Positions 2,107-53,913 of a stretch of 64,000 nt of DNA are shown piece after piece (the first letter of the stretch is position 1; each line of letters starts with the position of its first letter). The DNA is taken from the NCBI RefSeq assembly GCF_056712565.1, contig NZ_CM160072.1; one strand, 5' to 3'. The notes under the pieces are model-generated. The model had not been told where the DNA came from and made no database searches. It saw only the letters and a program-made list of their open reading frames with translations. The translations under genes and the position numbers were made by a program.

Positions 2107-2748
2107 TCACAACTCCGGGGTTAAATGAGCAAGAATTTGTTTTGCCTGAGTGGTCAGGCGATTACGAGAAAACATCAGTTGCAGACGACCGCCGCCGACC
2201 TGGTGCCAGAGCACGGCGGCGCGAATGCCTGCCAGCAGGGTTGCGCGAACTTTCGCCTGCACCTGTGGGCTTTGCAGTACAGCAGGGGAACCAGTGACCT
2301 GAATGCGCGGGCCAAGCGGGCTGATAACATCAACATAGATGGCAGCCATCGCGCTCATCAGCGTTTCGGACTGTAAATCGAAGTGTTCGAGCTGGCGTTG
2401 CAGGCCGTTGATCCGGTTGCCCAGAGTGTCGAGCGCACCTTTCGCTGAGGAGAGTTTGCGCTCAAGCACCATCAGACTGAGTGTGTAGCGGGTTAATTCG
2501 GCGTTTAAGCCCTGGCGACTGCTGGCATTGAGTACGCCGAGCAAGGTTTCCAGCCCGACGCGCAGGTTGGCTTCGCTACCGCCAAAAACCGCCAGCGTTG
2601 AGCTGGGGTTCATATCGATAATACTGTTGAGTGAGACGTGTAGCGCATCGCCATCACAATGCCCCTGGTGAGCGAGTTGTTGCACCAGGCGTGCCGACTG
2701 ACAAATACCGGCAAGGGCGAGGGTGATGTCATAGTAATTCTTTGCCAC
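2107..2748 (-). CDS. hflD: High-frequency lysogenization protein HflD
   Basis: ORF (MNV)[31 protein letters not shown]...; start probably the GTG two codons inside the tracked ORF. Confidence 0.85.
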
Positions 2749-2783
2749 GTTCACTGCTTCCTTGTTTTAAGTAAAGATAATAA

Positions 2784-4405
<1,622 letters not shown>

Positions 4406-10292: not shown

Positions 10293-11074
10293 GCTGCCAC
10301 CTTCTGCTCAGTGGCTTTCTGTTTCAGGAATCCAAGAGCTTTCACTGCTTCGGCCTGTGTCAGTTCTGACGATGCGCGAATGTCGCGGCGAAATATCTGG
10401 GAACAGAGCGGCAATAAGTCGTCATCCCATGTTTTGTCCAGGGCAATCAGCAGAGTGTTAATCTCCTGCATGGTTTCATCGTTAACCGGAGTGATGTCGC
10501 GTTCCGGCTGACGTTCTGCAGTGTATGCGGTATTTTCGACAATGCGCTCGGCTTCATCCTTGTCATAGATACCAGCAAATCCGAAGGCCAGACGGGCACA
10601 CTGAATCATGGCTTTATGCCGTAACATCCGTTTGGGATGCGACTGCCACGGCCCCGTGATTTCTCTGCCTTCGCGGGTTTTGAATGGTTCGCGGCGGCAT
10701 TCATCCATCCACTCGGTAACGCAGATCGGATGATTGCGGTCTTTGCGGTAAATCCGGCATGTACATGATTCATTGTCCTGCTCAAAGTCCATACCATCAA
10801 ACTGCTGGTTTTCATTGATGATGCGGGACCAGCCATCAACGCCCACCACCGGAACAATGCCGTTCTGCTTATCAGGGAAGGCGTAAATTTCTTTCGTCCA
10901 CGGATTAAGGCCGTACTGGTTGGCGACGATCAACAATGCGATGAACTGCGCATCGCTGGCATCACCTTTAAATGCCGTCTGGCGAAGAGTGGTGATCAGT
11001 TCCTGTGGGTCGACAGAATCCATGCCGACACGTTCAGCCAGCTTCCCTGCCAGCGTTGCGAGTGCTGTACTCAT
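10289..11074 (-). CDS. bet: Recombinase Bet (Red beta)
   Basis: 261 aa; [89 protein letters not shown]... Confidence 0.95.
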
Positions 11075-11079
11075 CCGTT

Positions 11080-11376
11080 TTATACCTCTGAATCAATATC
11101 AGCCTGATGGTGAGCAATGGTTTCAACTATGTACCGGATGTGTTCTGCCATGCGCTCCTGAAACTCAACATCGTCATCAAACGCACGGGTAATGGCTTTT
11201 TTGCTGGCCCCGTGGCGTTGTAAATGATCGATGCATAGCGATTCAAACAGGTGCTGGGGCAGGCCTTTTTCCATGTCGTCTGCCAGTTCTGCCTCTTTCT
11301 CTTCACGGGCGATCTGCTGGTAGTGACGCGCCCAGCTCTGAGCCTCAAGACGATCCTGAATGTAATAAGCGTTCAT
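11080..11376 (-). CDS. gam: RecBCD inhibitor Gam (short form)
   Basis: 98 aa; [56 protein letters not shown]... Confidence 0.93.
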
Positions 11377-11595: not shown

Positions 11596-11728
11596 TTTTT
11601 GGGACTCCTGGCTGATTAAGTATGTCGATAAGGCGTTTCCATCCGTCACGTAATTTACGGGTGATTCGTTCAAGTAAAGATTCGGAAGGGCAGCCAGCAA
11701 CAGGCCACCCTGCAATGGCATATTGCAT
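11564..11728 (-). CDS. cIII: Anti-FtsH regulator CIII
   Basis: Hand translation gives [54 protein letters not shown] (54 aa); below the 60 aa ORF-track cutoff. Confidence 0.85.
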   Translation of the reverse strand: MQYAIAGWPVAGCPSESLLERITRKLRDGWKRLIDILNQPGVPKNGSNNYGYPD

Positions 11729-11800
11729 GGTGTGCTCCTTATTTATACATAACGAAAAACGCCTCGAGTGAAGCGTAATTGGTATGCGGTAACGCCGCGC

Positions 11801-12351: not shown

Positions 12352-12552
12352 TCAGGCAGCTTTGTTGTTCTGTTTACCAAGTTCTCTGGCAATCATTGCC
12401 GTCGTTCGTATTGCCCATTTATCGACATATTTCCCATCTTCCATTACAGGAAACATTTCTTCAGGCTTAACCATGCATTCCGATTGCAGCTTGCATCCAT
12501 TGCATCGTTTGAATTGTCCACACCATTGATTTGTATCAATAGTCGTAGTCAT
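12352..12552 (-). CDS. ral: Restriction alleviation protein Ral
   Basis: 66 aa; MTTTIDTNQWCGQFKRCNGCKLQSECMVKPEEMFPVMEDGKYVDKWAIRTTAMIARELGKQNNKAA. Confidence 0.92.
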   Translation of the reverse strand: MTTTIDTNQWCGQFKRCNGCKLQSECMVKPEEMFPVMEDGKYVDKWAIRTTAMIARELGKQNNKAA

Positions 12553-14072: not shown

Positions 14073-14825
14073 TTATGCTGCAAGTCTCTTAACCCAAGTC
14101 TCTCTTTTGGAGAATGGTAGAACTTGGCTTGATTCATGGAAGAGTAAGGAGAGTTGTTGCATTTGATCACCAATTGCTTCGCTGTCTATAACAACAAATC
14201 TGTTGTTATACTCCTCACTTGAAGCTTTAAGATCAATTAGTTTCCCAAGCAATGAGTAAGCACTATTCCAGCTTCCTCCGTGTTTCACGCTTGATGTAAA
14301 AACGTATTTAGGTATGTCGGTTTTTATTGTTACAGGGACGGTAATTTGATGTCCACTCAAGCCATATACGTTTTCACGAAGAGAAAGTGCGTCTCTAAGC
14401 TCTGTGTGATATAGATAATCAATAACCATACTTTCAAACTTTTCAGCTTGAACTGGCTGATACCAGTCTAACGACAAAGTTGATGCGAGTATACCAGCTC
14501 TAATTATGTTCGATGTAATCGCACCGACATCCTTTTCTGTTGCCCAAGCAATGATTTCTCCTCGAGCATTGAGTTCTGCGCCTTCTTTAAGCAGTAATTG
14601 TCGTATCTCATCAAGTCGTTTTTTGGTAAGCGAGATCCCTCTTGCCTCCATATTCATTAAGGCATCGCATCTGTCACTAACTAAATACCTACCATTGACT
14701 TCACGGATAAAGGCACCGACATGCTCTCCATCATCACAGTAAGTGAATGGACTGATAATTCTCAAGGTCTTGCCTATTGGATGGCATTCGAAACCTAGTT
14801 GTGAGATCACTGTTGAGCACATCAT
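14073..14825 (-). CDS. Unknown protein (250 aa), distal gene of immunity-region operon
   Basis: ORF MMCSTVISQLGFECHPIGKTLRIISPFTYCDDGEH...; AT-rich (~35% GC); start overlaps upstream gene stop by 4 bp; no motif I recognise. Confidence 0.65.
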   Translation of the reverse strand: MMCSTVISQLGFECHPIGKTLRIISPFTYCDDGEHVGAFIREVNGRYLVSDRCDALMNMEARGISLTKKRLDEIRQLLLKEGAELNARGEIIAWATEKDVGAITSNIIRAGILASTLSLDWYQPVQAEKFESMVIDYLYHTELRDALSLRENVYGLSGHQITVPVTIKTDIPKYVFTSSVKHGGSWNSAYSLLGKLIDLKASSEEYNNRFVVIDSEAIGDQMQQLSLLFHESSQVLPFSKRETWVKRLAA

Positions 14826-15379
14826 ATTCCAAACCCCATTTGCCCCGACTCATCTTCAAGCGGTAAAGGTATTCTCCCAGAGTAAGTTATGTTCAGATGT
14901 TTACAGAAGTAATTCCAATACCCTACCAGGTCATCTGGGTTTATGTCATCTTCGATTGGAAACGCTATTCTATCACTATAGTATCCAGCTTCTTCATAGT
15001 ATACATGGTAGTGAGCACCGTAAATGATATCTTGGTACTTCGGATGATCGACCTTGTAACTATTCGTGTGTTTGTCAAAGTGATAGGTATCTACCGCGAA
15101 AACCCTCTTGTTATGATAGAAAGCAATAATATTTATTTTAGGGTAAGAAATCGGGTCATCAGGTTCTGAATCCTGATCTGGTTTCCATTTCAGTTCAAAC
15201 TTTAGCCCTTGTATAGGTATACAATCCTCATCCAAGGGGATGATATGGGCTTGTAGCCACATATCAGAGCGACTTGGTTTCTGTTTCCATTTAACGCCAG
15301 AAAAGTTAACTATTTTTTTACAATAAAGTACTTTATCAACTTCTACTTGGCTTGGCTGATAATCATCTATTTTTGCCAA
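14822..15379 (-). CDS. Unknown protein (185 aa), proximal gene of immunity-region operon
   Basis: ORF MAKIDDYQPSQVEVDKVLYCKKIVNF...; begins 39 bp after the cI stop; AT-rich; no motif I recognise. Confidence 0.65.
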   Translation of the reverse strand: MAKIDDYQPSQVEVDKVLYCKKIVNFSGVKWKQKPSRSDMWLQAHIIPLDEDCIPIQGLKFELKWKPDQDSEPDDPISYPKINIIAFYHNKRVFAVDTYHFDKHTNSYKVDHPKYQDIIYGAHYHVYYEEAGYYSDRIAFPIEDDINPDDLVGYWNYFCKHLNITYSGRIPLPLEDESGQMGFGI

Positions 15380-16875: not shown

Positions 16876-17775
16876 ATGACAAATACAGCAAAAATACTCA
16901 ACTTCTGCAGAGGTAACTTTGCCAAACAGGAGCGTAATGTGGCAGATCTCGATGATGGTTACGCCAGACTATCAAATATGCTGCTTGAGGCTTATTCAGG
17001 CGCAGATCTGACCAAGCGACAGTTTAAAGTGCTGCTTGCCATTCTGCGTAAAACCTATGGATGGAATAAACCAATGGACAGAATCACCGATTCTCAACTT
17101 AGCGAGATTACAAAGTTACCCGTCAAACGGTGCAATGAAGCCAAGTTAGAACTCGTCAGAATGAATATTATCAAGCAGCAAGGCGGCATGTTTGGACCAA
17201 ATAAAAACATCTCAGAATGGTGTATCCCTCAAAACGAGGGAAAATCCCCTAAAACGAGGGATAAAACATCCCTCAAATTGGGGGATTGCTATCCCTCAAA
17301 ACAGGGGGACACAAAAGACACTATTACAAAAGAAAAAAGAAAAGATTATTCGTCAGAGAATTCTGGCGAATCCTCTGACCAGCCAGAAAACGACCTTTCT
17401 GTGGTGAAACCGGATGCTGCAATTCAGAGCGGCAGCAAGTGGGGGACAGCAGAAGACCTGACCGCCGCAGAATGGATGTTTGACATGGTGAAGACCATCG
17501 CGCCATCAGCCAGAAAACCGAATTTTGCAGGGTGGGCTAACGATATCCGCCTGATGCGTGAACGTGACGGACGTAACCATCGCGACATGTGTGTACTGTT
17601 CCGCTGGGCATGCCAGGACAACTTCTGGTCCGGTAACGTGCTGAGCCCGGCCAAACTCCGCGACAAGTGGACCCAGCTCGAAATCAACCGTAACAAGCAA
17701 CAGGCAGGTGTGACAGCCTGCAAACCAAAACTCGACCTGACAAACACTGACTGGATTTACGGGGTGGATTTATGA
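16876..17775 (+). CDS. O: Replication initiator O
   Basis: 299 aa; MTNTAKILNFCRGNFAKQERNVADLDDGYARLSNMLLEAYSGADL...; contains ori iterons. Confidence 0.95.
   Translation: MTNTAKILNFCRGNFAKQERNVADLDDGYARLSNMLLEAYSGADLTKRQFKVLLAILRKTYGWNKPMDRITDSQLSEITKLPVKRCNEAKLELVRMNIIKQQGGMFGPNKNISEWCIPQNEGKSPKTRDKTSLKLGDCYPSKQGDTKDTITKEKRKDYSSENSGESSDQPENDLSVVKPDAAIQSGSKWGTAEDLTAAEWMFDMVKTIAPSARKPNFAGWANDIRLMRERDGRNHRDMCVLFRWACQDNFWSGNVLSPAKLRDKWTQLEINRNKQQAGVTACKPKLDLTNTDWIYGVDL
17224..17350. repeat. ori-lambda: four iterons plus AT-rich region inside O
   Basis: Four ~19 bp ATCCCTCAAAACGAGGGA-type repeats then AAAGAAAAAAGAAAAGATTATT. Confidence 0.9.
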
Positions 17776-18760: not shown

Positions 18761-18833
18761 CCATCTACATCACTGAGCTAATAACAGGCCTGCAGGTAAT
18801 CGCAGGCCTTTTTATTTGGGGGAGAGGGAAGTC

Positions 18834-19274
18834 ATGAAAAAACTAACCTTTGAAATTCGATCTCCGGCACATCAGCAAAACGCTATTCACGCAGTACAGC
18901 AAATCCTTCCAGACCCAACCAAACCAATCGTAGTAACCATTCAGGAACGCAACCGCAGCTTAGACCAAAACAGGAAGCTATGGGCCTGCTTAGGTGACGT
19001 CTCTCGTCAGGTTGAATGGCATGGTCGCTGGCTGGATGCAGAAAGCTGGAAGTGTGTGTTTACCGCAGCATTAAAGCAGCAGGATGTTGTTCCTAACCTT
19101 GCCGGGAATGGCTTTGTGGTAATAGGCCAGTCAACCAGCAGGATGCGTGTAAGCGAATTTGCGGAGCTATTAGAGCTTATACAGGCATTCGGTACAGAGC
19201 GTGGCGTTAAGTGGTCAGACGAAGCGCGACTGGCTCTCGAATGGAAAGCGCGATGGGGAGATCGGGCTGCATGA
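18834..19274 (+). CDS. ninB: NinB recombination protein
   Basis: 146 aa from MKKLTFEIRSPAHQQNAIHAVQQILPDPTKPIVVTIQERNRSLDQNRKLWA... Confidence 0.88.
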   Translation: MKKLTFEIRSPAHQQNAIHAVQQILPDPTKPIVVTIQERNRSLDQNRKLWACLGDVSRQVEWHGRWLDAESWKCVFTAALKQQDVVPNLAGNGFVVIGQSTSRMRVSEFAELLELIQAFGTERGVKWSDEARLALEWKARWGDRAA

Positions 19275-19798
19275 CTATCAAATCAAATACGCCAGCACAC
19301 GACAAGGACTGCTGGCAAACGCCGCTTTGGCTTTTTGATGCACTGGATATTGAGTTTGGATTCTGGCTGGATTCGGCAGCGAGCGACAAAAATGCTCTGT
19401 GCGCTCACTGGCTAACTGAGGACGACGACGCGCTCAATTCTGAGTGGGTAAGCCACGGTGCAATCTGGAATAACCCACCGTACAGCAATATCAGGCCGTG
19501 GGTGGAAAAAGCCGCTGAGCAGTGTATACAACAGCGACAGACGGTAGTGATGCTTGTGCCAGAGGATATGTCTGTCGGATGGTTCAGCAAGGCTCTGGAG
19601 AGTGTTGACGAAGTTCGTATTATCACTGATGGACGGATTAATTTTATCGAACCATCGACAGGGCTGGAGAAGAAGGGAAACAGCAAAGGCTCCATGCTGC
19701 TGATTTGGCGACCGTTCATCAGTCCTCGACGGATGTTTACTACCGTATCCAAAGCGGCATTGATGGCGATCGGGCAGGGCGTCAGGAGGGCTGCATGA
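19271..19798 (+). CDS. Phage orphan DNA N6-adenine methyltransferase
   Basis: 175 aa from [25 protein letters not shown]...; contains the NPPY catalytic motif (IWNNPPYSN); start overlaps ninB stop (ATGA); occupies the lambda ninC slot. Confidence 0.8.
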
Positions 19799-19971
19799 GA
19801 CGACAGCGACGAAGCATCACCGACATAATCTGCGAAAACTGCAAATACCTTCCAACGAAACGCTCCAGAAATAAACGCAAGCTAATCCCAAAAGAATCTG
19901 ACGTAAAAACCTTCAATTACACAGCCCACCTGTGGGATATCCGGTGGCTAAGATATCGTGCGAGGAAATGA
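19795..19971 (+). CDS. ninE: NinE
   Basis: 58 aa [58 protein letters not shown]. Confidence 0.85.
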
Positions 19972-20315: not shown

Positions 20316-20525
20316 CCCATCTCAATCCCTTCAATACCTGAAAGAAAGCATAGAGCGGGCTTCAATGTGCACAGAGTGGATTCTATCTAGGTTTAGCGCA
20401 TACAGAAGATTGCCGGTAAAGGGCATGCCAAGCAAGTCGATGCTGCATATGCAAAAGAATGCGCGCTGGAAGGTATGGCGAGAACACAGGTTATGTGGCT
20501 GAAAGAGGGGGTTATTAAGGCGTGA
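20308..20525 (+). pseudogene. Mosaic remnant: NinF-like N-terminus joined to YbcO-like C-terminus in another frame
   Basis: Frame 1 starts [18 protein letters not shown] (NinF-like) then diverges; a second frame ends ...[29 protein letters not shown] which matches the C-terminus I recall for DLP12 YbcO. Confidence 0.5.
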
Positions 20526-21678: not shown

Positions 21679-22761
21679 TTAGAACTGATAAACCAGACCT
21701 ACAGCGACGATGTCGTCGGTATCAATACCAGCTGTTTTGGTAAACTTACTATCGTCAATTAAGTTGATTTTGTAATCAACAAAAGTGGACATGTTTTTAT
21801 TAAAGTAGTAAGTAGCACCGACATCGACATACTTGACTAAGTCTCGGTCACCATGAACACCAAGGTCTTTACCTTTTGACTGAAGGTAAGCAACAGATGG
21901 ACGCAGACCGAAGTCAAACTGATATTGTGCTACTGCTTCAAAGTTTTGTGCTTTGTTTGCAATATGGTTATTACCAAAAACGGTCATATTCTGAGTTTCA
22001 GAATATGTGGTAGCCAGATAGATATTGTTCGCATCATATTTCAGGCCTGCAGCCCATACTTCCGCATTTTTGCCGGAGGCATTGAATTTGCTCTTACCAT
22101 AGGCGACCTGACCGTCAGTGCGATCTGATTTAGCATAGGTTGCACCCACGCCGAATCCTTCATACTCATAAGTAGTGGAGAAACCGAAACCATCACCATT
22201 GGCTTCAGTTACGTCAGTGCGGTCATTTTTACCCTGATACTGAGCAGCAAAGTTCAGGCCATCGACCAGACCAAAGAAGTCGTTGTTACGATAAGTTGCA
22301 ACACCAGTAGTGCGACCAGTCATGAACACATCTGTTTGGGTCCAGGTATCACCACCGAATTCTGGCAGAACGTCAGTCCACGCACCGATGTCGTATGCTA
22401 CACCGTAGTTACGGCCGTAATCGATTGAGCCGTAATCACCAAATTTCAGGCCTGCAAATGCAAGACGGGTTTTGTCTTTGGAAGAACCTTGAGATTCAGC
22501 ACGGTTGCCTTTGAATTCATATTCCCACTGACCGAAACCAGTCAGTTGATCGTTGATTTGGGTTTCACCTTTGAAGCCAAGACGGGCATAAGTAGTATCA
22601 CCATCATCTGCATCATTAGAGGAGAAGTAGTGCTTGGCATTAACTTTCCCGTATAGATCCAGCTTGTTACTGTCTTTATTATAAATTTCAGCTGCCTGAG
22701 CAGACATCGCCATCAGTACTGATGCAGCTACAGCAGAAATTGCCACTGTTAATTTTTTCAT
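21679..22761 (-). CDS. nmpC: OmpC/NmpC-family outer membrane porin (prophage moron)
   Basis: Signal peptide [24 protein letters not shown]-terminal ...VGLVYQF beta-barrel terminus, porin-like body; inserted between Q and lysis genes on the opposite strand. Confidence 0.88.
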
Positions 22762-23187
22762 TGTACGCCCTTTTTTTGAACTATTATTAAAAAATGATGT
22801 CACTGCGCGATAAATATTCATCTAATCAATGTGATTATTTCAAGATGTAAGTTTTAGTTTCTCATTTAATTTGTGAAGTAGATCTCTATTTTTATCTGAA
22901 CCTTTTCTATCTAATCCTATTCATGGCTCTTGTCTGAACAAAAATAAATCTATTAGCTAATTTATATTAATGGCACTTATTTATAAGTGCTCTATAATTC
23001 TTTAGCTTAATTTAAACAAACTAAAAATAACATTGGAAATTATTAACTGGTTATTTGTTGAAGTTTTCTTATGCATTTGTGGTGGTGTTTTGAACACTCG
23101 GTGGCATTCTCACAAATATCATTTAGTAGTTTACGTACGTAAAAAATTGGTTATGCTGTTAAGAGTGGTTACTTCGTCACACAGCTT

Positions 23188-24551: not shown

Positions 24552-24845
24552 TTATTGTGAGCAATACACACGCGCTTCCAGCGGAGTATAAATGCCTAAA
24601 GTAATAAAACCGAGCAATCCATTTACGAATGTTTGCTGGGTTTCTGTTTTAACAACATTTTCTGCACCACCACAAATTTTTGCTGCATCGACAGTTTTCT
24701 TCTGCCCAATTCCCGAAACGAAGAAATGATGGGTGATGGTTTCCTTTGGTGTTACTGCTGTAGGTTTGTTTCCAACAGTAAACGTCTGTTGAGCACATCC
24801 TGTAATAAGCATTGCCAGAGCGGCAGAAAACAACATTTTTTTCAT
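24552..24845 (-). CDS. bor: Bor lipoprotein (serum resistance, lysogenic conversion)
   Basis: 97 aa from MKKMLFSAALAMLITGCAQQTFTVGNKPTAVTPKETITHHFFVSGIGQKKTVDAAKICGG... Confidence 0.9.
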   Translation of the reverse strand: MKKMLFSAALAMLITGCAQQTFTVGNKPTAVTPKETITHHFFVSGIGQKKTVDAAKICGGAENVVKTETQQTFVNGLLGFITLGIYTPLEARVYCSQ

Positions 24846-25325
24846 CTTATTATCCTGCATTGTTAAAAACGGCAGAATCCTATGTGACAACAATTAAACG
24901 ATAGTTAAATGGATTGATGAAAATTAAAACTACACAGGTGGGCTCAGACTATTGGAGGAAGTTGGGGACACTCAGAATCCTGTGGAATGAAATAAACCGG
25001 TCTATCCGTCCATTACCCTTTTAGCTGCGCTGTATCGTCGCCGTATTCCCGCATTAACCATGACCGTAGCCCGACGGGGAATTCCTTCTGCGTGAGTGTG
25101 CGGGAATAATTAAAAACGATGCACACCGGGTTTTTACCGCGTTAATGATTCGCGGGTTTATCCCGGTGCGATGGTGGAAGAAACAGGAAGCTGTATTACA
25201 GAAAGTGCTACTACTGTATCCCGATGCGATGTATGTAATGTGAGTCAGATAATGGCACAGGATGTGGTGATGTGGCAGTCTGGAACACAGGATATATTGT
25301 CAGAATAAGACCCGTAGGAATAAAA

Positions 25326-25652
25326 ATGAAAAGACGCCTTTTACTACTTTTTCTGTTATCTGTCCTGGCAGTGGGATGCTCGCAGCAAAAAGCTGATGAG
25401 CCCCGGCAATTAGTGACGGTGTATCCACGATATCCGGAATATGCTGCAGCAAATTATATCAAGGGGCTGGTTGAGGTTAAGTTCGATATTGGTGCTGATG
25501 GGACTGTGACACGGATCGTTTTTCTCCGCTCAGAGCCTCATAATTTGTTTCGTGATGAAGTGGTGAAGGCCATGGCGAAATGGCGATTTGAAAAGAATCG
25601 CCCCTGTCAGGGAGTGAAGAGACAATTTATCTTTACGCCGTCACGTCCTTGA
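25326..25652 (+). CDS. Putative lipoprotein with TonB C-terminal-like domain
   Basis: 108 aa from MKRRLLLLFLLSVLAVGCSQ (lipobox); YPRYPEYAAANYIKGLVEVKFDIGADGTVTRIV resembles TonB C-terminal domain. Confidence 0.55.
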   Translation: MKRRLLLLFLLSVLAVGCSQQKADEPRQLVTVYPRYPEYAAANYIKGLVEVKFDIGADGTVTRIVFLRSEPHNLFRDEVVKAMAKWRFEKNRPCQGVKRQFIFTPSRP

Positions 25653-40735: not shown

Positions 40736-41479
40736 ATGACAGAGACAGAATCAGCGATTCTGGCGCATGCCCGGCGATGTGCGCCAGCGGAGTCGTGCGG
40801 CTTCGTGGTGAGAGCGCCGGAGGGGGAAAGATATTTTCCCTGCGTGAATATCTCCGGTGAGCCGGAGGCGTATTTCCGGATGGCTCCGGAGGACTGGCTG
40901 CAGGCAGAGATGCAGGGTGAGATTGTGGCGCTGGTCCACAGTCATCCCGGTGGTCTGCCCTGGCTGAGTGAGGCCGACCGGCGGCTGCAGGTGCAGAGTG
41001 ATTTGCCGTGGTGGCTGGTCTGCCGGGGGGCGATTCATAAGTTCCGCTGTGTGCCGCATCTCACCGGGCGGCGCTTTGAGCACGGGGTGACGGACTGTTA
41101 CACGCTGTTCCGGGACGCTTACCATCTGGCGGGGATTGAGATGCCGGACTTTCATCGTGAGGATGACTGGTGGCGTAACGGCCAGAATCTCTATCTTGAT
41201 AATCTGGAGGCCACAGGGCTGTATCAGGTGCCGTTGTCAGCGGCGCAGCCGGGCGATGTGCTGCTGTGCTGCTTTGGTTCATCGGTGCCGAATCATGCCG
41301 CTATTTACTGTGGTGACGGCGAGCTGCTGCACCATATTCCTGAACAACTGAGTAAACGAGAGAGGTATACCGACAAATGGCAGCGACGCACACACTCCCT
41401 CTGGCGTCACCGGGCATGGCGCGCATCTGCCTTTACGGGGATTTACAACGATTTGGCCGCCGCATCGACCTTCGTGTGA
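40736..41479 (+). CDS. K: Tail tip assembly protein K (JAB/MPN plus NlpC/P60-like); start uncertain
   Basis: 247 aa ORF with HSHPGG motif and C...H peptidase-like region; an internal start MAPEDW at 40880 would give 199 aa. Confidence 0.85.
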   Translation: MTETESAILAHARRCAPAESCGFVVRAPEGERYFPCVNISGEPEAYFRMAPEDWLQAEMQGEIVALVHSHPGGLPWLSEADRRLQVQSDLPWWLVCRGAIHKFRCVPHLTGRRFEHGVTDCYTLFRDAYHLAGIEMPDFHREDDWWRNGQNLYLDNLEATGLYQVPLSAAQPGDVLLCCFGSSVPNHAAIYCGDGELLHHIPEQLSKRERYTDKWQRRTHSLWRHRAWRASAFTGIYNDLAAASTFV

Positions 41480-42048
41480 AAACGGGGGCTGAAGCCATCC
41501 GCGCACTGGCCACACAGCTCCCGGTGTTTCGTCAGAAACTGAGCGACGGCTGGTATCAGGTACGGATTGCCGGGCGGGACGTCAGCACGTCCGGGTTAAC
41601 GGCGCAGTTACATGAGACTCTGCCTGATGGCGCTGTGATTCATATTGTTCCCAGAGTCGCCGGGGCCAAGTCAGGTGGCGTATTCCAGATTGTCCTGGGG
41701 GCTGCCGCCATTGCCGGATCATTCTTTACCGCCGGAGCCACCCTTGCAGCATGGGGGGCAGCCATTGGGGCCGGTGGTATGACCGGCATCCTGTTTTCTC
41801 TCGGTGCCAGTATGGTGCTCGGTGGTGTGGCGCAGATGCTGGCACCGAAAGCCAGAACTCCCCGTACACAGACAACGGATAACGGCAAACAGAACACCTA
41901 TTTCTCCTCACTGGATAACATGGTTGCCCAGGGCAATGTTCTGCCGGTTCTGTACGGTGAAATGCGCGTGGGGTCACGCGTGGTTTCTCAGGAGATCAGC
42001 ACGGCAGACGAAGGGGATGGTGGTCAGGTTGTGGTGATTGGTCGCTGA
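41377..42048 (+). CDS. I: Tail tip assembly protein I
   Basis: 223 aa; MAATHTLPLASPGMARICLYGDLQRFGRRIDLRVKTGAEAIRALATQLPVF... Confidence 0.9.
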   Translation: MAATHTLPLASPGMARICLYGDLQRFGRRIDLRVKTGAEAIRALATQLPVFRQKLSDGWYQVRIAGRDVSTSGLTAQLHETLPDGAVIHIVPRVAGAKSGGVFQIVLGAAAIAGSFFTAGATLAAWGAAIGAGGMTGILFSLGASMVLGGVAQMLAPKARTPRTQTTDNGKQNTYFSSLDNMVAQGNVLPVLYGEMRVGSRVVSQEISTADEGDGGQVVVIGR

Positions 42049-42108
42049 TGCAAAATGTTTTATGTGAAACCGCCTCCGGGCGGTTTTATCGTTTATGGAG
42101 CATGAGGA

Positions 42109-48382: not shown

Positions 48383-49240
48383 CTAATTGGGTGATAACAG
48401 ATCCTGTGTATGGGAGTTTCCCTTTTTGCGTGCGTTGATGCTGGTAACGGCAAACGTCATGATGAACAAAACCGCGAATAAGACGACAATCGTCGGAGCT
48501 GGTGCGCTGTCGATAAAAAAGGACAACCAGACACCAGTCATTGACACTATTACCGATATGCCAGTCGCCAGTAGGAGCGCAATATGAAAGCGTTGTGTCA
48601 GGAGTACCGCAATGGCGCCAGGCGCAATGAGCAGAGAAATGGAGAGAATGATACCTACCGCTTTCAGCGTCGCCACAATGGTCAGAGAGACCATGCACAG
48701 CAGCCCATAATGCAGCCATCTCGTATGCAAACCGCTTACCTGCGCCTGTTGATAATCAAAGCTGAACAGCAAAAAATCCCGCCATTTTACGCTAATAACA
48801 AGTGTAACCAGCCCGGCAATAATCATCGTCTGGATTATATCGCCGATGGTTATCCCGAGCATGTCGCCGAAAAGAATATGGTCAAGATGTACGTCTGGTT
48901 TGACTGCAATATACAAGATCAGACCTGCGGCAAACATGCCAGAAAAAACAATCCCCATCACTGTATCTTGCTTGATTCGGCTGTTGTCTTTCAGGTATCC
49001 CGTCGCCACCGCGCAGAATACTCCGGCGACGAATGCCCCTGTAGCCAAAGGTAACCCCAGAATCCAGGCAAGCACGATTCCAGGAAAAACCGCATGACTC
49101 ATCGCGTCACCCATCAGTGCCCAACCTTTCAGGACCAGAAAGACCGACAGCAGCGCACAGGGTATGGAAACTACCAGTGAAATCAGCAGTGCGTGACTCA
49201 TAAAGGTGAACTGCAGTGGCTCCAGTAATAATGCCATCAT
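48383..49240 (-). CDS. sitD: Mn/Fe ABC transporter permease SitD
   Basis: 285 aa polytopic membrane protein of the ABC-3 permease family, last gene of a four-gene operon. Confidence 0.85.
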   Translation of the reverse strand: MMALLLEPLQFTFMSHALLISLVVSIPCALLSVFLVLKGWALMGDAMSHAVFPGIVLAWILGLPLATGAFVAGVFCAVATGYLKDNSRIKQDTVMGIVFSGMFAAGLILYIAVKPDVHLDHILFGDMLGITIGDIIQTMIIAGLVTLVISVKWRDFLLFSFDYQQAQVSGLHTRWLHYGLLCMVSLTIVATLKAVGIILSISLLIAPGAIAVLLTQRFHIALLLATGISVIVSMTGVWLSFFIDSAPAPTIVVLFAVLFIMTFAVTSINARKKGNSHTQDLLSPN

Positions 49241-50094
49241 GAGCGATCCTCCAGCGCCTTATGCGCACGCCGACGATTTGCCAAAAGCCCATGGGTGGGC
49301 GCAAAGACAAATGCTAAAAGAAACAGCAGTGTCTGCGCCACCACGATGATTCCACCTGTCGCGCCGTCCAGAAAGTAACTGACCCACGCGCCGAGGAAAC
49401 TAGTTACACTGCCAATAGTTACAGCAATCATGAGCAGGCGGGGAAAACGATCGGTTAACAACCATGCTGTTGCACCGGGAGTCACCACCAGACAGATCAC
49501 CAGAAAGGCACCAACCGTTTGCAGCGCCGCAACGGTCGAAACCGACAGCAGGGTGAAGAAGATGAGTTTTAATCTGCCCGGATGCAATCCAATAGCACGG
49601 GCGTGATTCTCGTCGAAAAAGGTCACCATAAGATCTTTCCATTTGAAAAAAAGCACGATGATCGAGAGAATGCCAATGATAGTGAGTTGCAGGATATCCG
49701 CCGGATCGATTGCCAGAATATTGCCCAGGACGATGGTCTGAATGTTCACAGATGTCGGGTTCAATGACACCATAAACAGCCCCAGGCCAAAAAAGGACGA
49801 GAAGATCAGACCGATGATGGCATCTTCTTTTAAGCGGGTGCGTTGGTTAAGAAACAGCATGCTGCCCGCAGCCAGTCCGCCGGAAAAGAAGGCTCCCAGA
49901 GAAAACGGAAGCCCCAGCATATATGCCCCCGCAACACCCGGGACAATAGAGTGCGACAACGCATCGCCAATCAGCGACCAGCCTTTTAGCATCAGATAGC
50001 ATGACAGGAAAGCGCAGAGACCGCCGACCATCGCCGAGACCCACATCGCATTGAGCATATATTCATAGCTGAAGGGTTCCAGTAGCACGTTCAT
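49237..50094 (-). CDS. sitC: Mn/Fe ABC transporter permease SitC
   Basis: 285 aa ABC-3 family permease, paralogous to SitD. Confidence 0.85.
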
Positions 50095-50918
50095 CTTTCT
50101 TCCCTCTGCACCGCTGACGGTCGATGAGCCACAAAAGGGCGTTCATCGTCAGTAATAATGCTTTCTTCCGAGCCGTTAAGTGTGACATGGCGCAGTACGC
50201 CGCTAAAAGCCAGCTCCAGGTTCTCGGCTGTAAAAGTGGTGTCTGTCGGCCCGCTTGCCAGGACGGTGCCTTTGACCATGACCGTATAATCGCAAAATGT
50301 CGTGACGGATCCGAGATTGTGTGTTGAGACAAGCATCGTTTTGCCTTCCGCGCGTAACTCCCTCAACAGGCTGATGATTTTGGCTTCGGTTTTCACATCA
50401 ACGCCGGTAAAAGGTTCATCCAGCAGGATCACATCACCCTGCTGTGCAATCGCTCTCGCCAGAAAGACGCGTTTCTTTTGTCCACCGGAAAGCTCGCCGA
50501 TTTGTCGATGGCGAAAATTCACCATATCGACACGTTCCAGCGCATCGGTGACAATCTGACGATCCCTCTTTTTGGCGATACGCAACATACCCATATGCCC
50601 ATAGCGGCCCATCATCACCACATCTTCCACCAGTACAGGAAATGACCAGTCAACATCTTCTGACTGAGGGACGTAGGCAACCAGGTTTTTCTGTAACGCC
50701 TGTCGCGTGGGAATACCCAGAACAGATATCTTTCCGCTGGTCAGACGCACAAATCCCATAATCGCTTTAAACAACGTCGATTTTCCGGAACCGTTTACCC
50801 CAACCAGAGCGGCAATAGATCCGCCTGGTACTGTGAAGGATGCATCGCGCAGTGCTGTGTGCCCGTTACGCCAGGTGACAGTAACATCATTAACGACAAT
50901 GCCTGCAGATTGCATCAT
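50091..50918 (-). CDS. sitB: Mn/Fe ABC transporter ATP-binding protein SitB
   Basis: 275 aa; Walker [13 protein letters not shown] signature LSGGQKKR, Walker B ILLDEP. Confidence 0.9.
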
Positions 50919-51832
50919 TATTTCTCCCTTTTCCCAGCTTTAATTCCCTGTACCAGCGTACTGGTAGTAACCTTAAGAAGGTCGATATACGTCGGTACCG
51001 GGCCGTTTTCTGTGCTCAGGGAATCGACATAGAGCACACCGCCGTAGTGTGCGCCGGTTTCACGCGCAACCTGACGCGCTGGTTTATCGGAAATCGTACT
51101 CTCGCTAAAGACTGCCGGGATATGATTTTTCTTAACTATATCAACAACCTTACGTACCTGCTGCGGTGTTCCTTGTTGATCGGCATTAATCGGCCACAGA
51201 TAAAGCTCTTTTAGCCCCAAATCGCGTGCGAGATAAGAAAAAGCCCCTTCACTGGTGACCATCCATCGCTGATTCTCAGGGAGTTCCGTAATCTGCTTAC
51301 GCAGGGGGGCAAGGGTTTGGGTAATCTTGGCTTTATAAGTATCGGCATTGCGTTGGTAGGTTTGTGCATTTGCCGGATCGTATTTTATCAACGCATCACG
51401 AATATTATCGACGTAAATCAGAGCATTATCTGGCGACATCCATGCATGGGGGTTAGGTTTGCCCTCATAGGGTCCTTCGGTGATCCCTACAGGCGTCACA
51501 CCCGAAGAGACAATTACTTCTGGAACCCCATTGAGATGCTGGTAAAAGCGTTGGAACCACAATTCCAGATTCATACCATTGGCGAGAATCAGTTGTGCCC
51601 CCTGCGCACGTTTAATATCGCCAGGGGTAGGCTGATACTCATGAATTTCTGCACCAGGCTTGGTTATGGATGAGACTTCTGCAGCATCTCCCGCCACGTT
51701 TTTGGCCATATCCGCGATGATGGTAAATGTTGTAATGACCTTGAATTTTTCAGTTGCACTTGCCTGAAATGCGATCGAGCAGGTGAGTGCGAGGCCCCCC
51801 AAGAGCATGGTTACTTTTTTTATCGAGTGCAT
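50918..51832 (-). CDS. sitA: Periplasmic Mn/Fe-binding protein SitA
   Basis: 304 aa with signal peptide; cluster 9 (TroA/ZnuA-like) solute-binding protein. Confidence 0.88.
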
Positions 51833-53289: not shown

Positions 53290-53749
53290 CAAGTAATACG
53301 GCGAGCGATATGACGTGCCATGGGATATCCGCACCCAGCAGCATGTTGTCTCCACGATGTCCGCAGTTCGCTCATAATAGACATTCACTACAGTTATAGT
53401 AGAAGGTATGCATGCTGCTGAGTGGGGAAAGTGTGAAAGAAAAGAAGACAGCTGCTTTGTTTGTCGTCACGTTTATCTTCATTGGCTATGCAAGTCGTAA
53501 TACAAGGCGGGACAAAACTGAGACACATAAGGCCTCGCAATGGCTTGCAAGGCCACACATGTATTGAGATGTTAATAAAATGTAGACTTGTAATTTTGAT
53601 ATAAATGGTAGAGAAAATCTTTCCCCAAAATAAAAACGAACGTCAATGAAATCAAACGGTTGAATAAAGTTGATTTTGGCTAATACAAAGACAAGAAAAT
53701 AATATTTATGATTAAATATCAGCGAGTTGAATACATAATTTTTATATAC

Positions 53750-53913
53750 TGCTGCGCCATATGGGCTGGACTGAAGCCGCAGACCTGATTGTTAAAGGTA
53801 TGGAAGGTGCAATCAACGCGAAGACCGTAACCTATGACTTCGAACGTCTGATGGAAGGCGCTAAACTGCTGAAATGTTCAGAGTTTGGTGACGCGATCAT
53901 CAAGAACATGTAA
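53750..53913 (+). pseudogene. icdC: Displaced icd 3' fragment (icdC-like) = right copy of att duplication
   Basis: Encodes ...[53 protein letters not shown] with no upstream icd body; repeat of 6327..6490. Confidence 0.88.

Follow-up and report, generated by a model that had tools for sequence, protein, structure and literature searches.

A small Dam-like N6-adenine methyltransferase gene in the nin region of a lambda-like Escherichia coli prophage

Between ninB and ninE of a lambda-like E. coli prophage lies a gene for a 175 aa protein that is very probably an active orphan methyltransferase of the small phage Dam type, directed at GATC and made during lytic growth, when it would top up the methylation of phage DNA. 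The gene was found in a 64,000 nt stretch of contig NZ_CM160072.1 (RefSeq assembly GCF_056712565.1), here called the window, and both its open reading frame and its family matches are far beyond chance. It is an already known, annotated and widespread small phage Dam-like enzyme, and nothing about the gene as such is new.

The methyltransferase gene and its place in the prophage

The window is a piece of E. coli chromosome with a lambda-like prophage beside icd, which extends from ~6600 to ~53900 (~47 kb) and is 99.7% identical to a prophage of strain Nissle 1917 over 27 kb. The elements of the gene and its immediate surroundings are the following:

18786–18817, plus strand: tR2-like intrinsic terminator between ren and ninB, an 8-bp GC-rich stem (18786–18809) followed by a T-run (terminator scan)
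18834–19274, plus strand: ninB/orf (recombination mediator), the upstream gene (Pfam NinB PF05772, 1.1e-54)
19255–19260, plus strand: Shine-Dalgarno-like GGGGAG, 10 nt 5′ of the ATG and within the 3′ end of ninB (read from the sequence)
19271–19798, plus strand: coding sequence of the phage N-6-adenine DNA methyltransferase, 175 aa (open reading frame and translation; identical to RefSeq WP_000153286.1)
19307–19324, plus strand: codons of D13-C-W15-Q-T17-P18, the N-terminal 'xxTP' element, putatively motif X in gamma-class terms
19367–19384, plus strand: codons of L33-D34-S-A-A-S38, the AdoMet-binding strand-loop, putatively motif I
19472–19483, plus strand: codons of motif IV, N68-P69-P70-Y71 (catalytic, adenine-binding), located by a regular expression on the translation and invariant in alignments
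19795–19971, plus strand: ninE, the downstream gene (Pfam NinE PF05322, 1.8e-41)

The reading frame runs from the ATG at 19271 to the TGA at 19796–19798 (175 codons plus stop). Its ATG (19271–19273) overlaps the TGA of ninB (19272–19274), its own TGA overlaps the ATG of ninE (19795–19797), and the sequence gctgcATGA is present at both junctions, with the ATGA at 19271–19274 in the first and at 19795–19798 in the second. The ATGA overlaps on both sides, described in the first-pass annotation of this DNA together with the placement between ninB and ninE, were thus confirmed by the coordinates and by the Pfam matches of the two flanking proteins. Downstream of ninE the order continues with NinX, RusA and the Q antiterminator (Pfam search), and every immediate neighbour is a standard nin gene. 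A longer frame of 195 aa, beginning with a GTG at 19211, was rejected as the true start; homologues start at the position of the ATG at 19271, share the beginning M-T/M-x-K-S-N-T (HP1 Dam included) and are mostly 173–183 aa long. Rfam and tRNA scans returned nothing within or adjoining the gene.

Nucleotide identity to lambda is ~97% from cII via O, P and ren to ninB (97.2% through the ninB stop), ends exactly at the stop codon of ninB (window 19274, lambda 41084) and restarts inside ninE at 94.6% (window 19802, lambda 42097). On this alignment, the methyltransferase gene is a clean swap for lambda ninC together with most of ninD (lambda 41085–42096). The earlier description of the gene as a replacement of ninC is therefore right about the slot between ninB and ninE but too narrow about what was exchanged, as most of ninD was replaced along with ninC. 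Lambda NinC (PAPS-reductase-like, 290 aa) occupies the same slot and has the same overlapping start after ninB, but the two proteins are unrelated, NinC belonging to PF01507 (PAPS_reduct), as expected for a mosaic module swap and not for divergence.

Homologues with 66–73% identity are located in prophages of Providencia, Yersinia and Edwardsiella (P0043, P0056 and P0032), within tightly packed early operons. NinB is not a neighbour of the methyltransferase in any of these loci, and the linkage to ninB is therefore local rather than functional; a functional coupling with NinB, considered on account of the adjacency in the window, is not supported. No nuclease partner was found beside the homologues in the three genera, and no restriction endonuclease is annotated in the whole ~47 kb prophage according to the RefSeq annotation of Nissle 1917 and S88, where the methyltransferase gene is 100% identical. 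That annotation agrees with the initial statement that a partner endonuclease is lacking. Judged by its NinB and NinE flanks, the RefSeq prophage annotation and the PADLOC oMTase label, the enzyme is an orphan (solitary) methyltransferase, and a partner gene as in Type II restriction-modification was found neither in the flanks nor in the prophage annotation nor in the homologue loci.

The state of preservation differs among closely related prophages. The replication gene O is intact in the window (16876–17775, plus strand, 299 aa, lambda-like). In E. coli S88 it is frameshifted and 67 bp shorter (S88 region positions 10377–11209), and in Nissle 1917 the region from int to gam is replaced by an IS3-family element and the integrase is truncated. 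The copy in the window looks less decayed than these two relatives. A truncated DUF1364 (ninF/ybcO-like) fragment at ~20436–20525 on the plus strand, just 5′ of rusA and annotated in near-identical genomes, is a small scar of earlier recombination in the nin region.

Family membership, conservation and predicted fold

Pfam, NCBIfam, PHROG and PADLOC each contain a family model that matches the protein. The PF05869 "Dam" match covers its full length (residues 4–169, profile positions 1–167 of 169) with 219.1 bits against a cutoff of 28.1 (3.7e-65), and the NCBIfam equivalog TIGR01712 "phage N-6-adenine-methyltransferase" is matched over all 165 profile positions (1–165) with 265.6 bits against a cutoff of 97.05 (1.2e-79). 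It also matches PHROG 111 (DNA methyltransferase), while the best PADLOC match is the oMTase "orphan methyltransferase" model (1.6e-19) and the MTase_II models respond weakly (5.3e-08).

In an alignment of 32 sequences, which includes T1 Dam and HP1 orf13 (themselves PF05869 members), no variation occurs at the residues N68-P-P-Y-S72, T17-P18 and L33-D34, while A36 is conserved at ≥90%; the segment L33–S38 lies at the end of the predicted strand E31–36. NPPY is invariant as well in an alignment of five sequences with the enzymes of VT2-Sakai, 933W, HP1 and T1. In these comparisons with characterised methyltransferases, the conserved motifs are all intact. The 175 aa protein with NPPY that the first-pass annotation had reported is thus located precisely (residues 68–71, nt 19472–19483), and its identification as an N6-adenine DNA methyltransferase is upheld by the family assignment, the PADLOC label, the conserved motifs and the predicted fold.

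The AlphaFold2 model (pLDDT 90, pTM 0.87) predicts an N6-adenine methyltransferase fold of the Class I (Rossmann-like) AdoMet-dependent type, in which the 175 aa leave no separate target-recognition domain. In PDB sequence searches, both with the single protein and with a profile of the 32 sequences, only chance-level matches were obtained. In the structural comparison, 104–107 residues of the model align with Dam or T4 Dam versus 134–148 for the top matches, and by this measure gamma-class enzymes (M.TaqI, HsdM) resemble the model more closely than Dam and T4 Dam do. With these two alpha-class enzymes of PF02086 the window protein has in common N6-adenine methylation, the expected GATC target and the orphan status. 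However, it shows none of the hallmarks of the canonical Dam family: it lacks a PF02086 match, has NPPY in place of DPPY, is without an inserted target-recognition domain and is ~100 residues shorter. We conclude that it is a single-domain N6-adenine methyltransferase with a predicted Rossmann-type fold, belonging to a small phage family of its own and not to PF02086.

The closest known counterparts come from Shiga-toxin phages. VT2-Sakai orf32 (NP_050531) and 933W gp34 (NP_049494) are likewise orphan PF05869 proteins of 175 aa, whose genes follow ninB immediately and overlap it at their start, with ninE coming next in VT2-Sakai, and each protein differs from the window protein in one residue (99.4% identity), namely residue 51, which is D in the window, A in VT2-Sakai and V in 933W. 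Synonymous to non-synonymous differences amount to 10:1 against 933W and 8:1 against VT2-Sakai, an excess that indicates purifying selection. The phages as such are dissimilar, VT2-Sakai and 933W being Stx-converting short-tailed phages, whereas the prophage at icd in the window, from an ExPEC-type E. coli, is a lambda-like, non-Stx element with a lambda-like O/P/ren/ninB module. More distant are T1 Dam (M.EcoT1Dam, 237 aa, 32% identity) and HP1 orf13 (173 aa, 35% identity), orphan phage enzymes of PF05869 that share DxWxTP, LDxxA and NPPYS with the window protein. T1 Dam differs by an N-terminal extension of ~45 residues and an internal insertion, and the genomic contexts are different too, T1 being a virulent siphovirus and HP1 a P2-like phage.

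Among complete E. coli genomes, the gene is present in 1565 of 5426 (~29%), under the RefSeq name 'phage N-6-adenine-methyltransferase' (WP_000153286.1). E. coli Nissle 1917, S88, ATCC 11775, NU14 and others carry it with 100% nucleotide identity, and the 1135-bp stretch from ninB via the methyltransferase gene to ninE is 100% identical in the phages ev207, ev017, PhiR57_1 and PhiR63_2.

Target sequence, expression and likely role

Methylation of GATC adenines in DNA to m6A is predicted for the window protein by analogy to its relatives, as GATC is the main target of every characterised member of the PF05869 family that we found (M.EcoVT2Dam, T1 Dam, M.Btr190III and PamA). A passage of PMC6602927, citing PMID 11720311, gives M.EcoVT2Dam as an orphan methyltransferase of prophage VT2-Sa that is 'known to target GATC'. 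In VT2-Sakai, orf32 is the only annotated methyltransferase gene; a second one is not annotated, and a scan of five unannotated early ORFs, run with the 2806 aa orf71 left aside, found no methyltransferase domain among them. Since orf32 is the sole annotated candidate, we infer that it encodes M.EcoVT2Dam, so that the near-identical counterpart of the window protein would have the reported GATC target. T1 Dam is described as GATC-modifying in PMC4996451. The same paper reports that M.Btr190III, which shares 35% identity with M.EcoT1Dam, has GATC as its target but shows marked off-target activity as a cloned enzyme, and that it seems to be silent in the lysogen.

PamA of the S. aureus prophage mPhi11 (141 aa, NPPY at 64–67) also methylates GATC; GATC methylation of S. 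aureus DNA, seen as DpnI sensitivity, appeared only with PamA present, and under native control PamA increases both the expression of fnbA and the size of abscesses (PMC12435837). A phage 52A protein with the exact features of PamA (141 aa, ending in Q141, NPPY at 64–67) matches PF05869 with 8.9e-32 and is ~34% identical to the window protein, and on this ground we place PamA in PF05869. Like the window protein, PamA is a small orphan enzyme with NPPY at nearly the same position and a GATC target. It lacks the C-terminal ~35 residues of the window protein, and it gives S. aureus DNA a methylation pattern not otherwise present and alters transcription, an effect that would be masked in Dam-positive E. 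coli.

Several other links were examined and rejected. The non-specific enzymes Hia5 and Hin1523 are grouped in PMC3299994 with canonical Dam, DpnM and T4 Dam (DPPY), outside PF05869. M.EcoGIX ('SAY') is, according to PMC7736820, a plasmid-borne, single-strand-specific enzyme. A tblastn match in Klebsiella phage Soft, which hinted at a fusion of or link between the methyltransferase and a NinC-type PAPS reductase, was discarded as a mis-annotation. The Soft protein gp34 (locus positions 2456–3166) is a 236 aa homologue of the family that carries the RefSeq label 'phosphoadenosine phosphosulfate reductase' while its own note reads 'Conserved DNA methylase'; the label is apparently an annotation error in the public record. 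GATC is somewhat depleted in the prophage of the window (142 sites observed versus 183–222 expected), which says nothing decisive about the role of the enzyme.

The terminator at 18786–18817, which we take to be the equivalent of lambda tR2, is located in the gap between ren and ninB, as in lambda. Promoter-like sites number 11 in the region versus 15.6 in shuffled sequences, and none was found just 5′ of the methyltransferase gene. With the gene downstream of the terminator in the pR operon, delayed-early, N-dependent lytic expression is most likely, a conclusion drawn solely from gene order. The protein would then be made from pR after infection or induction and not in a stable lysogen.

In N6-adenine methyltransferases, the flipped-out adenine is held by NPPY and AdoMet is the methyl donor. 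By comparison with its characterised relatives, the window enzyme would flip out the GATC adenine, accommodate it in the NPPY pocket and methylate it at N6 in an AdoMet-dependent reaction. Lambda and P22 virion DNA is undermethylated by Dam (PMC8022706), which makes the topping up of progeny GATC methylation the simplest role. In this role the enzyme would complete the methylation of fast-replicating phage DNA that limiting host Dam leaves undermethylated; this would make progeny genomes resistant to restriction at unmethylated GATC and render phage methylation independent of the Dam status of the host. The selective benefit is not obvious, because the host already methylates GATC.

A different possibility is a relaxed or altered specificity, extending to near-cognate GATC sites or to adenines broadly, which would turn the enzyme into a broad anti-restriction device against many systems. 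Some off-target activity may indeed be expected of a 175 aa protein modelled without a separate target-recognition domain; M.Btr190III behaves in this way (PMC4996451), and promiscuity is frequent among the methyltransferases of prophages and plasmids (PMC4659465). We nevertheless regard this possibility as unlikely, given that GATC is the main target of all the characterised members that we found and that phage enzymes without any real specificity (Hia5/Hin1523, M.EcoGII) are assigned to the relatives of canonical Dam or to other types, and not to PF05869 (PMC3299994).

Of the two roles that had been proposed at the outset, protection of phage DNA from host restriction and modulation of host gene expression in the lysogen, the second has become the weaker one. 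A main action in the lysogen, altering host DNA methylation, gene expression or virulence, has a precedent within PF05869 in the S. aureus prophage enzyme PamA, which acts in the lysogen under native control (PMC12435837); a phage 'Dam methyltransferase' was also among the genes detected in Phi24B lysogen cultures (PMC3342100), and the prophage of the window carries other lysogenic-conversion cargo (an ompC-like porin gene, iss and sitABCD). However, host Dam already methylates ~99.9% of the E. coli GATC sites (PMC6602927), so that a further GATC enzyme would be masked in an E. coli lysogen unless off-target sites exist, and the gene follows a terminator in the pR operon, which is repressed by CI, and no separate promoter for it was detected. 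Both observations disfavour a lysogen role, and similar prophage methyltransferases have repeatedly been reported as silent in lysogens (PMC4996451, PMC4659465). We consider it quite improbable that the enzyme acts mainly in this way.

Similarly little credit is due to a further proposal, by which the enzyme would do more than duplicate host Dam: acting on phage DNA as it replicates during lytic growth, it would methylate GATC and near-cognate sites to excess, block GATC-directed restriction and render recombination intermediates resistant to MutH. Its link to mismatch repair is speculation, based on the position among the recombination genes ninB and rusA, an adjacency that is not conserved in other genera. 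If it were true, resistance to MutH nicking would promote homeologous recombination, the process by which lambdoid mosaics arise.

That the gene, in a defective prophage, is decaying or inactive and carried along without current function, as the IS3 insertion and truncated integrase of Nissle 1917, the frameshifted O of S88 and the truncated DUF1364 of the nin region might suggest, is extremely improbable in view of its full-length frame with all invariant residues intact, the far greater number of synonymous than non-synonymous differences, and the identical sequence in genome records of sequenced phages (ev207, ev017, PhiR57_1).

Accompanying prophage genes and significance

The prophage carries further genes outside the replication and recombination functions. 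Two overlapping genes at 14073–14825 and 14822–15379 (both minus strand) are located 3′ of a cI-like repressor gene, in the slot of lambda rexA/rexB, and encode a 250 aa DUF1828 protein and a 185 aa protein with a weak DUF6978 match. They match the PADLOC candidate defence system PDC-M24 (subunit B 4.7e-10, subunit A 4.8e-04), and the pair is probably a prophage-encoded anti-phage system. A Ral antirestriction gene at ~12352–12552 (minus strand) is annotated in the 100% identical region of S88, which gives the prophage a second restriction-evasion function besides the methyltransferase. The only Rfam match in the window is the lambda cIII thermoregulator RNA element RF01804 at 11683–11741 on the minus strand (88.5 bits, 3e-20), and no tRNA genes were found in the 64,000 nt.

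An OmpC-like porin gene (21679–22821, minus strand) separates the Q antiterminator from the lysis genes; in the near-identical prophages of Nissle and S88, RefSeq names it 'porin OmpC'. The arrangement is that of nmpC in DLP12, and the gene is likely lysogenic-conversion cargo. Just after the lysis cassette follows an iss/bor gene (24552–24845, minus strand; RefSeq 'increased serum survival lipoprotein Iss'), and after iss a gene at 25272–25652 (plus strand) whose product, a small protein, matches the TonB C-terminal domain (1.1e-12). The sitABCD operon (48383–51832, minus strand), a virulence-associated phage cargo that encodes an iron/manganese ABC transporter, is located in the right arm between tail-fibre genes and the partial icd duplicate (~53746–53913) that marks the right end of the prophage.

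The methyltransferase gene is an ordinary, long-annotated gene that is carried by Shiga-toxin phages and E. coli prophages alike; gp34 of the Stx2 phage 933W is already annotated as 'similar to methylases of bacteriophage HP1 and T1'. Its discovery value is small, given that a RefSeq name and dedicated Pfam, NCBIfam, PHROG and PADLOC models exist, and the VT2-Sakai phage already supplies a cloned, near-identical counterpart in M.EcoVT2Dam, presumably the product of orf32.
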